A DNA stretch of 64,000 bases, taken from NCBI GenBank assembly GCA_013287645.1, contig JABDDJ010000006.1, positions 1,441 to 65,440 of the forward strand. Direction: 5' to 3'. A program made the translations under genes and the position numbers. Under the pieces are notes generated by a model that did no database searches, was not told the DNA's origin, and saw only the letters and a program-made list of their open reading frames with translations. Positions 47,659-52,173 of the stretch are shown piece by piece; position 1 is the first letter of the stretch, and each line of letters opens with the position of its first letter. This DNA comes from Chlamydiota bacterium (GTDB lineage: Bacteria; Chlamydiota; Chlamydiia; Chlamydiales; JABDDJ01).

Positions 47659-50600
47659 TTATAAGATACGCGTGATAGTTACTATCGCACTCGTTTTGGT
47701 AGTTCCAATTCCCCCTGGAGCTACCTGTCCTATTGTAGTCGACGCTGTGAATTGAATTTTTACAACATCACCCGAATTAAAAGTTGTAATAAAACAAGTT
47801 GACACCTGCGTAGTTTGAGTTGAAAGAGCAGCTATATTATTAATTATATAAGATTGACTTCCTGGTATTTCTGTACCATTTACGACACCTCTCAAAGAAA
47901 ATGTGGCCGCTAAGCTTACTACCGCTGTAAGCGTTGCCTCACCATTATAAATAACCATATAAGTTCCCGTTTGATTACAGGTAAATGAAGCCGTTCCTGC
48001 CGTATGTGTCCAGCCGCTTAGCTGACCATTATTGCTAAAAGTAATGTCTTGAAAAGTATTTGCTGAGGCCACTGTCTGCGTCGTCGTATCATAAGCAAAA
48101 ACAAAATTACCTAATGCTGGACCTGTTGGTCCAGTTGCCCCTGTAGGACCCGTTGGATTCCTTGGACCCGTCGGACCAGTCGGACCCGTTGGCCCGGTTT
48201 GTCCTGTCGAACCTGTAGGACCAGTTGCACCTGTAGGGCCTGTTGCACCTGTAGGGCCAGTTGCACCTGTTGGTCCTGTAGCTCCGGTTGGTCCGGTGAA
48301 TCCAGTTGCACCTGTTGGGCCGGTTGAACCTGTGGCACCTGTTGGGCCTGTCGATCCTGTTGCGCCAGTCGGACCAGTTGAGCCTGTTGCGCCGGTTGGT
48401 CCAGTAGATCCCTTAGCTCCTGTGGGGCCTGTCGATCCTGTTGCTCCGGTTGGACCTGTTGAACCAGTTGCTCCAGTAGGTCCTGTTGATCCTGTAGCAC
48501 CTGTGGGACCAGTTGAGCCTGTTGCACCTGTTGGTCCAGTAGATCCAGTAGCTCCAGTCGGCCCAAAATCACCTGTAGCACCCGTCGGTCCGGTTGATCC
48601 TGTCGATCCAGTCGCGCCTGTGGGACCTGTTGAACCTGTGGCTCCAGTAGGTCCCGTTGAACCAGTTGCACCTGTTGGTCCAGTTGAACCAGTTGCACCA
48701 GTTGGGCCAGTCGATCCTGTTGCACCAGTTGGGCCAGTCGATCCTGTTGCGCCAGTCGGACCAGTTGATCCAGTAGCTCCGGTTGGTCCGGTTGATCCTG
48801 TAGCTCCGGTTGGTCCAGTTGATCCTGTGGCACCGGTGGGTCCTGTTGAACCGGTTGCACCTGTAGGGCCAGTTGATCCTGTAGCTCCAGTTGGTCCGGT
48901 TGATCCTGTCGATCCAGTCGCGCCTGTGGGACCTGTTGCACCAGTTGGACCGGTTGAACCCGTAGCACCTGTTGGTCCAGTTGAGCCAGTAGCACCAGTC
49001 GGACCAGTTGATCCTGTAGCTCCTGTGGGGCCAGTTGAGCCTGTTGCACCTGTTGGTCCAGTAGATCCAGTAGCACCAGTCGGCCCAAAATCACCTGTAG
49101 CACCCGTCGGTCCGGTTGATCCTGTAGCTCCGGTTGGACCTGTTGAACCGGTTGCACCAGTTGGGCCAGTTGAGCCGGTAGCTCCAGTTGGTCCTGTTGA
49201 TCCAGTAGCACCGGTTGGTCCAGTTGAGCCTGTGGCACCAGTTGGTCCTGTCGATCCTGTTGATCCAGTTGGTCCGGTTGAACCCGTAGCACCTGTTGGG
49301 CCGGTTGAACCTGTAGCGCCAGTCGGACCAGTTGATCCTGTAGCTCCTGTGGGGCCAGTTGAGCCTGTTGCACCTGTTGGTCCAGTAGATCCAGTAGCAC
49401 CAGTCGGCCCAAAATCACCTGTAGCACCCGTCGGTCCGGTTGATCCTGTAGCTCCTGTGGGGCCAGTTGAACCTGTTGCTCCGGTTGGTCCAGTTGAACC
49501 CGTAGCGCCTGTTGGTCCAGTTGCTCCAGTTGGCCCTGTTGAACCTGTGGCTCCGGTTGGTCCAGTTGAGCCAGTTGCACCAGTTGGCCCTGTTGATCCT
49601 GTAGCACCTGTGGGGCCAGTAGATCCAGTAGCACCCGTCGGTCCGGTTGAACCCGTAGCGCCTGTTGGTCCAGTTGAGCCAGTTGCGCCGGTTGGACCTG
49701 TTGAACCGGTTGCACCTGTAGGGCCAGTTGATCCTGTAGCTCCAGTTGGTCCAGTAGATCCAGTAGCTCCTGTGGGGCCAGTAGATCCAGTAGCACCCGT
49801 CGGTCCGGTTGAACCCGTAGCGCCTGTTGGTCCGGTTGGTCCAGTTGATCCTGTTGCTCCAGTTGGGCCTGTTGATCCTGTTGCGCCAGTCGGTCCAAAA
49901 TCACCTGTCGATCCTGTTGCACCAGTTGGACCGGTTGAACCCGTTGCTCCGGTTGGTCCGGTGAATCCAGTTGCACCAGTTGGGCCTGTCGATCCTGTTG
50001 CGCCAGTCGGACCAGTTGATCCTGTAGCTCCTGTGGGGCCAGTTGAACCTGTGGCTCCGGTTGGTCCAAAATCACCTGTCGATCCTGTTGCACCAGTTGG
50101 ACCGGTTGAACCCGTTGCTCCGGTTGGTCCGGTGAATCCAGTTGCACCAGTTGGTCCTGTTGAGCCGGTAGCTCCAGTTGGTCCTGTAGATCCTGTGGCG
50201 CCTGTGGGACCTGTTGAACCTGTAGCTCCTGTGGGTCCAGTTGAGCCAGTTGCGCCAGTCGGACCAGTTGATCCTGTAGCTCCTGTGGGGCCAGTTGAAC
50301 CTGTTGCTCCGGTTGCTCCGGTTGGTCCAGTTGCGCCGGTTGGACCTGTTGAACCGGTTGCACCAGTTGGTCCTGTAGATCCTGTTGCACCTGTTGGACC
50401 TGTTGGACCTGTTGAACCGGTTGCACCAGTTGGGCCAGTTGAGCCGGTAGCTCCAGTTGATCCTGTTGCTCCGGTTGGTCCTGTCGATCCTGTTGATCCA
50501 GTTGGACCTGTCGATCCCGTAGCACCAGTTGGTCCGGTTGAACCCGTAGCACCTGTTGGTCCTGTCGAGCCGGTTGATCCAGTTGGCCCTGTTGAACCAG

Positions 50601-52173
50601 TTGGACCAGTAGATCCAGTAGCACCAGTTGGTCCCGTGAATCCTGTTGCGCCAGTTGAACCAGTGGCGCCAGTCGGCCCAAAATCACCTGTAGCACCAGT
50701 CGGGCCTGTTGATCCTGTTGCGCCAGTCGGACCAGTTGAACCAGTTGGACCAGTAGATCCAGTAGCACCAGTTGGTCCCGTGAATCCTGTTGCGCCAGTC
50801 GGACCAGTTGATCCTGTAGCACCTGTGGGGCCTGTCGATCCTGTTGCTCCGGTTGGTCCAGTTGAGCCAGTTGCGCCGGTTGGACCTGTTGAACCGGTAG
50901 CACCAGTTGGCCCTGTTGAACCCGTTGCTCCGGTTGGGCCTGTTGATCCTGTAGCACCTGTTGGTCCAAAATCACCTGTCGATCCTGTTGCACCAGTCGG
51001 ACCGGTTGAACCGGTAGCACCAGTTGGTCCAAAATCACCTGTCGATCCTGTTGCACCAGTCGGACCGGTTGTACCCGTTGCTCCGGTTGGTCCGGTGAAT
51101 CCAGTTGCACCAGTTGGACCGGTTGATCCTGTAGCTCCAGTTGGACCTGTTGATCCAGTAGCACCTGTTGAGCCAGTGGCTCCGGTTGATCCTGTAGCTC
51201 CAGTTGGACCTGTTGATCCAGTAGCACCTGTTGAGCCAGTGGCTCCGGTTGATCCTGTTGAACCCGTGAATCCTGTAGCACCAGTCTGACCTGTTGGGCC
51301 TGTTAGTCCAATAGCCCCGGTTGGCCCGGCAGCACCTGTTGAACCAGTCGGGCCAGTTGAGCCTGTTGCACCGGTTGATCCTCTTTGACCTGTAGGACCA
51401 GTGCCCATGGGACCGGTAGGTCCTGTTTGTCCTGTGGGTCCTTTTTGTCCTGTTTGCCCCGTAGGACCAGTGCCCATGGGACCAGTGGGGCCTGTTTGTC
51501 CTGTGGGGCCTATTGTACCAGTACTACCTGTAGGACCAGTGCCCATGGGACCAGTGGGGCCTGTTTGTCCTGTGGGGCCTATAGTACCAGTACTTCCTGT
51601 AGGGCCAGTGCCCATGGGACCAGTGGGTCCTGTCTGACCAGTGGGACCTATAGTACCAGTACTACCTGTAGGACCAGTACCCATAGGACCAGTGGGTCCT
51701 GTTTGTCCTGTGGGACCAATTGTACCAGTACTTCCCGTAGGACCAGTACCCATAGGGCCAGTGGGTCCTGTCTGACCAGTGGGACCTATAGTACCAGTAC
51801 TTCCTGTAGGTCCAGTACCCATGGGTCCGGTAGGTCCTGCATGGCCTGTGGGACCAATGGTTCCAGATGCTCCAGTTGGTCCAGTTGGTCCGGTGCCCAT
51901 TGCACCTGTGGGTCCAGTTTCTCCATTTGTGCCGGTGGGTCCAGTGGGTCCGGTGGGTCCGATCGCTCCGGGTGTGCCTGGCGTACCTTGGGGTCCTTCA
52001 GGTCCAGGAAGTCCTGGAGGTCCTGGTGGTCCTTGTTTTGGAGGTTTGCAGCAGGATTTTTCGGATTGTGTATCAGCAATGGGGGTTTTATGAGCTAGGT
52101 CGCGGCATTCGATTAGCGTGAGTTTTAATGTAAAAAACAGGATTAATAGTTTAAGTAATCTTGTTTTCAACAT
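47659..52173 (-). CDS. giant collagen-like triple-helix-repeat protein with BclA/C1q-like C-terminal domain candidate
   Basis: Hydrophobic leader [21 protein letters not shown]. About 1305 residues of Gly-X-Y ([12 protein letters not shown]) follow, then a 152-aa beta-rich C-terminal domain. The ORF is open to 52239, but Met23 (52173) avoids overlap with the upstream gene. Confidence 0.9.
48118..52032 (-). repeat. in-frame 9/27-nt periodic Gly-X-Y coding repeat array with higher-order units
   Basis: Continuous GXY triplets. There are 69-nt units x7 at 51398-51880 and perfect duplications at 48995-49131/49319-49455 and 49892-49983/50063-50154. All six frames are open across the array. Confidence 0.9.

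Follow-up and report, generated by a model that had tools for sequence, protein, structure and literature searches.

A giant collagen-like protein with a BclA_C-type head, encoded beside glycosyltransferase genes in a Parachlamydiales genome

Background

Among the closest described counterparts of the protein that is analysed here, a giant collagen-like protein encoded on the minus strand of a 64,000-nucleotide stretch of a Chlamydiota genome (GenBank assembly GCA_013287645.1, contig JABDDJ010000006.1, positions 1,441 to 65,440; henceforth 'the window'), are the BclA-type proteins of Bacillus and Clostridium difficile. The stalk of the Bacillus anthracis BclA is several times shorter than the one in the window, and BclA is assembled in the cytoplasm of the mother cell without ever passing a membrane. 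Two further members, F-BclA and L-BclA, have been characterised in relation to the endospore appendages (ENAs) of Bacillus: the Thr/Ser-rich collagen stalk of F-BclA has 701 residues, with a predicted length of 196 nm as compared to 206 ± 17 nm measured, the stalks of BclA and F-BclA are glycosylated or expected to be so, and both the ENA connectors and L-BclA dock via an N-terminal CC motif (PMC12357932). In C. difficile the gene sgtA is located directly upstream of bclA3, and SgtA adds O-linked N-acetylglucosamine (O-GlcNAc) to Thr residues of the collagen repeat (PMC7157674). The BclA-like collagen fibres of Pasteuria (Pcl) constitute the adhesive nap of an obligate parasite; they have been implicated in host attachment and specificity (PMC10987987, PMC6238073). 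Finally, Lcl of Legionella pneumophila is a trimeric 'lollipop' adhesin with a signal sequence and a collagen stalk that is type II secreted and surface-associated; it occurs both at the surface of the cells and in supernatants of cultures (PMC11162425).

The window protein consists of a hydrophobic leader, a short linker with a Cys-Cys pair, a stalk that corresponds to ~370 nm of collagen triple helix and a C-terminal head of the BclA_C family. Full-text literature searches returned no report on collagen-like proteins in Chlamydiae and, to our knowledge, chlamydial envelopes have been described as lacking long fibres. The separate parts are known; what is new is their combination, with a presumed new mode of anchoring, in a cell type that is new for such proteins and at ~2 times the length of the longest characterised relative.

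Results and Discussion

Architecture of the collagen-like protein

The minus-strand open reading frame (ORF) 47659..52239 comprises 1526 aa when counted from a TTG codon. Its first Met, Met23 at 52173, which the initial annotation had taken as the probable start, yields a protein of 1504 aa and 130 kDa, and gene calling on a Logan contig independently arrived at the same start (see below). Residues are numbered from this Met throughout; ORF numbering runs 22 aa higher. The features of the protein and of the neighbouring genes are collected in Table 1.

Table 1. Features of the collagen gene and of the flanking enzyme genes (positions in the window)
Feature	Position	Strand	Evidence
Start codon and hydrophobic leader, aa 1-21	52111..52173	-	read from sequence
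Linker between leader and stalk, aa 22-47; contains Cys23 and, within SCCKPPKQ, the pair Cys41-Cys42	52033..52110	-	
Collagen-like region, aa 48-1353 (ORF aa 70-1375), 1306 residues, 429 Gly-X-Y triplets	48115..52032	-	
Zone of 23-aa (69-nt) repeats, aa 96-261	51391..51888	-	TRF: period 69, 6.9 copies, 87% matches
Longest unbroken run, 359 triplets, mainly (GPT/GAT/GST)n	48160..51390	-	
C-terminal head, 151 aa (aa 1354-1504), and stop codon; predicted BclA_C / C1q-TNF-type jelly roll	47659..48114	-	
GT707, 707 aa: N-terminal hydrophobic helix, GT2, TPR, GH130/GT108-like beta-propeller	52188..54311	-	
GT2 glycosyltransferase, 248 aa, without leader, 4 nt after recD	46040..46786	+	PF00535 E = 3e-18
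281-aa protein, signal-peptide-like N-terminus MRYLLLLLTTLSLTTHLQA, weak O-methyltransferase-like motif	46802..47647	+	
GH130-like beta-propeller protein, 348 aa, classical signal-peptide-like N-terminus, divergent from GT707	54453..55499	+	PF04041 E = 3e-10
GT25-family glycosyltransferase, 328-aa ORF (318 aa in independent call), N-terminal transmembrane-like segment	55450..56436	+	PF01755 E = 2e-7
Class I O-methyltransferase, 226 aa	56451..57131	+	Methyltransf_24 E = 3e-20

Both the hydrophobic leader and the CCKPPKQ segment that had been noticed earlier are present in the sequence. The leader reaches a Kyte-Doolittle mean of up to 2.1 over 15 residues, and the SCCKPPKQ linker directly abuts the first GPP triplets of the stalk. 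The stalk, for which ~435 triplets had been estimated, is giant as proposed; the count itself has to be lowered slightly, its end shifted by one residue, and its triplets fall into ten in-register runs that are separated by nine register breaks. The most frequent triplets are GPT (138), GST (112) and GAT (112), while GDF occurs 8 times; Thr occupies the Y position in 381 and Pro the X position in 151 of the 429 triplets, and the complete stalk contains only 14 charged residues. The protein matches the Pfam family Collagen (PF01391) with 572 bits against a cut-off of 27.2 bits, and with E = 2e-176 chance is of no concern.

Each of the 23-aa repeats closes with a two-residue register break, GPM-GT-GPT, and the eight breaks of this kind probably represent flexible kinks; the ninth (R-N-P-T) is found close to the C-terminal end of the stalk, near the head. 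As there is no hydroxyproline chemistry and the charges are limited to 14, the stability of the stalk would have to come from Pro in X, from Thr in Y and possibly from glycans. At 0.28-0.29 nm per residue, the 1306 residues of the stalk correspond to ~366-374 nm; the arithmetic behind the ~350-375 nm given in the initial annotation is sound, and this way of calculating is validated by the F-BclA fibre (PMC12357932).

The GC content of the collagen gene is 58%, versus ~40% in its flanks. A foreign origin on the basis of this difference was rejected, since the value follows from the codons for Gly, Pro, Thr and Ala; the gene prefers synonymous codons ending in A or T, broadly as its neighbours do. 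Across the repeat, two additional frames are open over ~1000 codons (48111-51281 on the minus strand and 48296-51289 on the plus strand) because the composition of the repeat excludes stop codons, and these frames are shadow ORFs and not genes.

Integrity and age of the repeat

We compared the window with an independent assembly, the Logan short-k assembly of run SRR8433209. Two Logan contigs are 100% identical to the window, one covering 36040-48249 and the other 51772-64000, and both stop inside the repeat, one at each end. Together they confirm both flanks and the two ends of the protein (the head, and the leader with the first ~87 residues of collagen), and between the confirmed N-terminus and the confirmed head the Gly-X-Y frame is unbroken by a stop. 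Within the gene, no more than 5 pairs of exact repeats are at least 60 nt long, with a maximum of 137 nt, and all of these are local and none interleaved.

The coding of the repeat is informative about its history. The peptide unit GPTGATGST is present in 84 copies that are encoded by 64 distinct DNA versions, and the third-position identity between the copies (0.388) is close to the value that is expected for a random draw on the codon usage of the gene (0.367). Hence, the synonymous sites are essentially randomised while the peptide is conserved, which implies an old array whose protein sequence is under purifying selection, and also one that is assemblable and recombinationally stable. Should the array contain an assembly error, then a local collapse is more likely than an inflation.

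Family and fold of the head domain

The non-collagen C-terminal tail (28% Ser plus Thr) had been described as a Thr/Ser-rich beta domain of 152 aa; apart from the length, which is one residue less, the description stands. The last 153 aa match the Pfam family BclA_C (PF18573) over profile positions 2-127 of 128 (44.7 bits against a cut-off of 38 bits, E = 1.6e-11), so that both the collagen and the BclA_C family are matched above their cut-off. A precomputed PF18573 match was present in 17 of 23 close homologues. The AlphaFold2 (AF2) monomer model that was obtained with 23 homologues is all-beta and has a predicted local distance difference test score (pLDDT) of 92.6 and a predicted TM-score (pTM) of 0.87. 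In a Foldseek search against the PDB it superposed with a probability of 1.0 on F-BclA, BclA (1wck, 2r6q, 2z5w, 3twi), BxpB/ExsFA, C1q and TNF ligands, which bears out the jelly roll that had been proposed for the tail. The top match was the C-terminal domain of F-BclA, the F-ENA tip fibrillum of Bacillus thuringiensis (TM-score TMq 0.71, E = 1e-9). The same protein (9H38) was recovered in a profile search of the PDB sequences (E = 8e-10), together with weak matches to C1q and adiponectin (E = 0.005-0.04); a single-sequence search of the PDB with the head yielded spurious matches only, and a profile was thus required. On the basis of the model and the profile match the head is a member of the BclA_C family with a jelly-roll beta-sandwich fold, and it would form a trimer by analogy with its solved relatives, which are all trimers.

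Predicted viral structures fit the head better than the structures in the PDB, the best being a 1188-aa Solivirus protein (TMq 0.90, 33% identity); a collagen-like protein of Tupanvirus reached TMq 0.84 at 27% identity. The likeness to giant-virus fibres to which the initial annotation had pointed is in fact more pronounced than the likeness to the Bacillus proteins. The head also matches dozens of collagen-repeat proteins from uncultured Caudovirales (again predicted structures) and PHROG 30509, 'collagen like minor tail' (E = 2e-8), and three IMG/VR contigs encode long fibre proteins that end in a head with 43-53% identity. In cultured-phage genomes no match was found.

Relatives of the head and of the whole protein

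An exhaustive profile search retrieved ~3600 clusters (50% identity) that contain the head at E ≤ 1e-3. The domain was C-terminal in all of them, which points to a position of the head at the distal end of the fibre. The subfamily to which the head belongs is recognised by the motifs YDTTTQ, ANTFQD and NGWTHT. Among the best 156 relatives of the head only 20 have 10 or more triplets (maximum 68), and the majority cap non-collagen fibres, which are encoded in metagenome-assembled genomes (MAGs) of Gracilibacteria, Peribacteria, Dependentiae, Verrucomicrobiota and Acidobacteriota and on phage-like contigs. Homologues with a collagen stalk nevertheless exist. The nearest relative is a protein from a Chlamydiota MAG, with a head that is 58% identical and a stalk of at least 110 triplets that is cut off by the end of the contig. 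The contig scan for head relatives, which covered species-representative genomes and did not return the genome of the window itself, made use of an alignment of 6 sequences; a metagenome scan with the alignment of the chlamydial clade yielded no closer relatives (maximum 48% identity).

A clade of six proteins (P0195, P0172, P0227, P0201, L012 and L001) shares the whole plan of the window protein. Members with a recorded N-terminus have a Sec-type leader followed by the motif C(C)-x-KPP-x-QGPPGP, which recurs in P0195, P0227, P0201 and L012, and in all members the collagen region leads to a head whose last residues are TIIRVL or closely similar. The combination of a canonical Sec-like leader, the Cys motif, a short collagen region and the same head was encountered in P0195, P0172, P0227, P0165 and L012. 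Relatives are usually truncated at contig ends; the complete clade members have only ~7-40 triplets, and the largest complete stalks encountered in the relatives have 187 (L005) and 107 (L034). The window protein thus appears to be an extreme expansion of an existing design. In two other collagen proteins with the head domain (L005, 7586-10435, and P0272) Cys-Cys pairs are found within the stalk, in the repeated form GPTGPCCTGPTGP, which suggests periodic interchain disulfide knots in those proteins.

Comparison with known systems

The host was considered chlamydia-like in the initial annotation, and this is corroborated by the threonyl-tRNA synthetase (29649-31649), which has 71-77% identity to proteins recorded under the names Parachlamydiales, Parachlamydiaceae or Chlamydiales; the named homologues of the glycosyltransferase GT707 (Table 1) are from Parachlamydiaceae as well. 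Judged by these sequences, the genome belongs in the Parachlamydiales.

F-BclA (PDB 9H38) provides the nearest solved structure of the head, and it shares with the window protein a long Thr/Ser-rich stalk and a glycosyltransferase gene nearby. The heads are however only 23-24% identical, the stalk in the window is 1.9 times longer, and where F-BclA has an F-ENA hook, the window protein has a Sec-type leader and a CC linker instead. F-BclA and L-BclA are proteins of Bacillus endospore appendages, whereas the host of the window is a non-sporulating diderm; ENA genes were not seen in the window. BclA of B. anthracis/cereus and BclA1-3 of C. difficile also have a GXT stalk and a PF18573 head, but the identity between the heads drops to ~19-20%. 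The exosporium leader was not found, neither as an NCBIfam match in the whole protein or in its first 70 aa, nor as a GPT[LFI]P-type motif. Of the BclA-type layout that had been proposed, stalk and head therefore hold, but an identification as BclA in the strict sense was rejected: the protein has a hydrophobic leader in place of an exosporium leader, and the host is a member of the Parachlamydiales and not an endospore-forming Firmicute. Unlike BclA, the window protein carries a leader and has an outer membrane to pass. The Pasteuria fibres, which can be likened to the window protein by description only, are located on the endospore surface of a Firmicute.

Lcl resembles the window protein in its signal sequence, its collagen stalk and its C-terminal head, and its producer is a Gram-negative that multiplies inside amoebae. 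For export across two membranes, Lcl is the best model to work from. It differs by its DUF1566 head, its short charged stalk (GPQGLPGPKGDKGEA repeats) and its N-terminal amphipathic anchor helix. The NCBIfam model for Lcl scored 498.9 (cut-off 500), with a match that is confined to profile positions 53-262, i.e. the repeats, and given the PF18573 head and the absence of DUF1566 an identity with Lcl was rejected. Similarly, the NCBIfam equivalog model SclB ('LPXTG-anchored collagen-like adhesin Scl2/SclB') was exceeded (591.8 versus 325), like SclA (534.7 versus 400), in both cases through the repeats only. We rejected Scl1/Scl2 as well, because an LPXTG-like motif is lacking and the head is C-terminal, whereas Scl proteins have an N-terminal variable head; anchoring as a lipoprotein or by sortase was discarded for want of a lipobox and of LPXTG in the sequence. 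Genes such as the one described here may, because of such scores, be mis-annotated as LPXTG adhesins.

The heads of C1q, C1QL, adiponectin, Caprin-2 and EDA share the jelly roll (TMq 0.62-0.71), and C1q and adiponectin in addition the logic of a collagen stalk with a trimeric head; these proteins are nonetheless eukaryotic, only 10-17% identical and provided with short stalks and hydroxyproline chemistry. A collagen region with a distal knob is also found in proteins of giant viruses (Solivirus, Tupanvirus, Edafosvirus, Hokovirus) and in tail or minor-tail proteins of uncultured Caudovirales. In contrast to these, the window gene resides in a bacterial chromosome context without viral genes around it, and most phage relatives of the head subfamily bear non-collagen fibres.

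The neighbouring glycosylation genes

GT707 and the collagen gene have the same orientation; 14 nt separate the stop codon of GT707 from the start of the collagen gene downstream, and the two genes probably constitute one operon. The gene order, with a glycosyltransferase gene adjacent to, co-oriented with and upstream of a GXT collagen gene, equals that of sgtA-bclA3 in C. difficile. The AF2 model of GT707 (pLDDT 89.6) comprises a helix, a GT2 domain with TPR and a five-bladed propeller. The GT2-TPR part has a fold that is closest to the peptide S-glycosyltransferases SunS/ThuS (E = 1e-13), and at the sequence level GT707 matches GmaR (E = 2.5e-7), the flagellin O-GlcNAc transferase of Listeria, and SunS (E = 1.6e-6). 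The propeller resembles GH130 phosphorylases and the GDP-mannose-dependent mannosyltransferases (MPT) of Leishmania. An independent gene call begins 33 codons later, but we kept the 707-aa start since homologues cover the longer N-terminus. Of the other enzymes in Table 1, the 281-aa protein converges on the collagen gene, 11 nt separating the two stops; Pfam, NCBIfam and PHROG scans gave no match for it and the sole functional hint is PDB 2gpy, an O-methyltransferase (E = 0.059). Leader-like or transmembrane N-termini were found in four of the six flanking enzymes (46802-47647, 52188-54311, 54453-55499 and 55450-56436), which is odd for enzymes that are expected to use cytoplasmic sugar donors.

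Homologues of GT707 (53-66% identity) are common in Parachlamydiales, and the core of GT707, GH130-like and methyltransferase genes is syntenic in two of the three long Parachlamydiales loci examined. The glycosyltransferase and its candidate substrate do not co-occur in these three loci, in which the GT707 homologues have no collagen or head gene within 10 kb. Because the loci of the relatives are devoid of the collagen gene, it has the appearance of an insertion that is specific to this lineage and placed behind a conserved cluster for glycosylation. The idea of an island dedicated to collagen glycosylation was weakened by the occurrence of the same core in relatives without a collagen gene. 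Glycosyltransferase genes near head genes were recovered only as distant homologues in two Dependentiae MAGs: a GT2 homologue (L009, 102-827; 34% identity) ~9 kb from a head-domain fibre gene, and a GT707 homologue (L004, 18448-19650; 28% identity) within 10 kb of one.

In one relative from the Parachlamydiales (L040, 12135-14960) an inverse-autotransporter gene (IAT_beta, 941 aa) directly follows the GT707 homologue and thus takes the slot of the collagen gene in the window, and in another relative (L044, 3017-6109) a PATR/autotransporter gene is found ~4 kb from the GT707 homologue. GT707 may therefore be associated with surface-adhesin genes in general.

Proposed function and alternative explanations

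Taken together, the data are best explained by a secreted, trimeric, probably O-glycosylated and adhesive surface fibre of ~370 nm, and we give the following five-step model as a whole a probability of about 0.55. (i) The hydrophobic N-terminal leader would take the unfolded chain out of the cytoplasm. (ii) The BclA_C/C1q-type head would then bring three chains in register, after which the triplets would zip from the head into a triple helix of ~370 nm, in which the eight two-residue breaks, evenly spaced close to the N-terminus, could serve as hinges. (iii) Many of the ~380 Thr residues of the stalk would be O-glycosylated, with the SunS/GmaR-like GT707 as candidate enzyme and with the neighbouring GT2, GT25, GH130-like and methyltransferase proteins perhaps as further candidates, and the glycans would stabilise the triple helix without hydroxyproline. 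(iv) The Cys-Cys pair might lock the three chains together, or tie the base of the fibre to a cysteine-rich partner in the envelope, or do both; a role as disulfide knot or anchor is suggested by the CC motifs of the ENA connectors and L-BclA (PMC12357932). (v) The distal head would bind a ligand on host cells, probably of a protist, or on other cells, so that the fibre could act as a long-reach adhesin or as a hairy nap. What the analysis itself shows are the domain layout, the family and fold of the head, the taxonomic position, the order of the genes and the selection on the repeat at the level of the protein; trimerisation, glycosylation, the disulfide anchor, surface location, export route, adhesion and ligand are inferred, and expression of the gene is presumed.

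Several observations weigh against the model. The leader is atypical, with two Lys residues within the hydrophobic core, and inspection of its sequence revealed no canonical lipobox and no clear cleavage site; a route across the outer membrane was not identified for the protein. The leader-like N-termini of four of the six enzymes do not fit a simple glycosylation in the cytoplasm before export. In none of the three long Parachlamydiales loci was a collagen or head gene present within 10 kb of the GT707 homologue, and since the core is conserved without collagen the primary substrate of the cluster is probably another one, with glycosylation of the stalk a co-option at best. Promoter and terminator scans returned sites that were no more frequent than in shuffled sequence. 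Lastly, the middle 3.5 kb of the gene (48250-51771) is unconfirmed by the Logan contigs and rests on the window's own assembly.

The protein could also be released, by type II or type III secretion, into the inclusion lumen or the environment, and act there as a glycosylated matrix, as a tether or on the host, rather than as a surface nap. A recognisable anchor (LPXTG, lipobox, beta-barrel or exosporium leader) is indeed missing, Lcl sets the precedent of a protein found in supernatants as well as on the surface, the leader-like and transmembrane N-termini of the flanking enzymes would suit a modification outside the cytoplasm, and unfolded Gly-rich chains would be plausible substrates for type III secretion. 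However, the Cys motif that is conserved where the stalk begins resembles a covalent docking device like that of the ENA tip fibrillae, and all characterised relatives present the head at the distal end, away from the surface of a particle or a cell. We therefore consider release, as opposed to a surface fibre, to be fairly unlikely.

A more far-reaching version of the surface fibre may also be formulated, which we regard as speculative and, taken as a whole, unlikely. In some environmental chlamydiae a glycosylated collagen nap of >300 nm would cover the infectious particles or fill the inclusion, as a spore-like 'exosporium hair' that was reinvented in a diderm. The head would have been exchanged with giant viruses and phages in protists, the CC pair would make disulfides to the Cys-cross-linked envelope, and glycosylation would take place outside the cytoplasm by leader-bearing, Golgi-like glycosyltransferases. 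The codon-scrambled run of 359 triplets would then be an evolved means of keeping a long protein repeat genetically stable.

The giant size could furthermore be a product of the assembly, the true repeat being shorter, longer or variable in the population, or the gene could be non-functional. Such doubt is fed by the break of the Logan assembly at both ends of the repeat, by the 24% of the 31-mers of the gene that are repeated, by the contrast with the complete relatives, which have at most 187 triplets, by the usual truncation of relatives at contig ends, and by the two additional open frames, which make openness alone weak evidence. On the other hand, the few exact repeat pairs are short, local and non-interleaved, so that 150-nt paired reads with a large k can resolve them; an error would more probably collapse than inflate the array; the scrambled codons in combination with the conserved peptide indicate an old, selected array and no recent slippage or chimera; and the frame is continuous from the confirmed N-terminus to the confirmed head. 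An artefactual length or a dead gene is, in view of these points, quite improbable.

That the gene encodes a viral fibre (a phage tail fibre or a giant-virus fibril), carried on a cryptic mobile element or recently captured and still serving a virus, is highly improbable: the top structural matches are viral, as are the PHROG family and the IMG/VR contigs, and the gene is missing from the equivalent position in related Parachlamydiales, but phage structural, packaging or lysis genes are not found near the collagen gene (the flanks contain recBCD, glycosyltransferases, methyltransferases, mutM and a deaminase) and the only Bro-N/integrase pair is >33 kb away, the Sec-type leader and Cys linker are common to small bacterial homologues including the protein from the Chlamydiota MAG, codon preferences are broadly those of the neighbours, and cultured-phage genomes gave no match. 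A prophage tail fibre in particular was rejected on account of the gene context without a phage module and the lack of a match in cultured phages.

Implications

Some caution is in order, as the finding is computational and originates from a contig of metagenome grade, and as the head family is widespread in uncultured bacteria and phages. If the model is correct, a glycosylated fibre of 370 nm with a knob of the receptor-binding type would be a new attachment or protective structure of chlamydial developmental forms, with a bearing on host range among protists. The locus connects the hairs of Bacillus spores, the fibres of giant viruses and phages and the adhesins of Gram-negatives that dwell in amoebae; giant viruses live in the environment of protist hosts too, and the locus would present a clean case for gene flow among the inhabitants of protists. 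With 359 unbroken triplets, no hydroxyproline, near-zero charge and scrambled codons, the stalk is an appealing starting point for recombinant collagen materials and lends itself to testing how triple helices gain stability from Thr and glycans. Genes of this type are probably under-counted, because short-read assemblies break inside them.

Other features of the window

A gene for a protein with a Bro-N domain adjoins a tyrosine integrase gene (12677-14881, plus strand); it is the only such pair in the window and lies >33 kb from the collagen gene. An Rfam scan of the window returned a single tRNA (Pro-GGG, 21033-21109, minus strand), ~6 kb from this pair, and Bro-N, integrase and tRNA together may be the remnant of an integrated element.

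The recBCD operon (37651-46035, plus strand) displays an extreme GC skew of -0.36 to -0.44 at 43-46 kb, at an elevated GC content of 0.43-0.47, and the same-strand genes to the right of the collagen gene (52000-57000) a skew of ~+0.2. The cumulative skew has its minimum at ~47-49 kb, and the switch near this position could be due to an inversion, to a foreign origin or to a replication-related switch.

The region 59810-63931 (minus strand) encodes a glycosyltransferase of 481 aa with a DXD sugar-binding region and a faint match of the TcdA/TcdB type. It is followed by two paralogues of 439 and 442 aa, for which no family match was found and which have the N-terminal motif NVFL..A.KLNL in common. 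Finally, a non-ribosomal peptide synthetase module of 1774 aa is encoded at 6941-12265 (minus strand), with condensation, AMP-binding, PP-binding and thioesterase domains.

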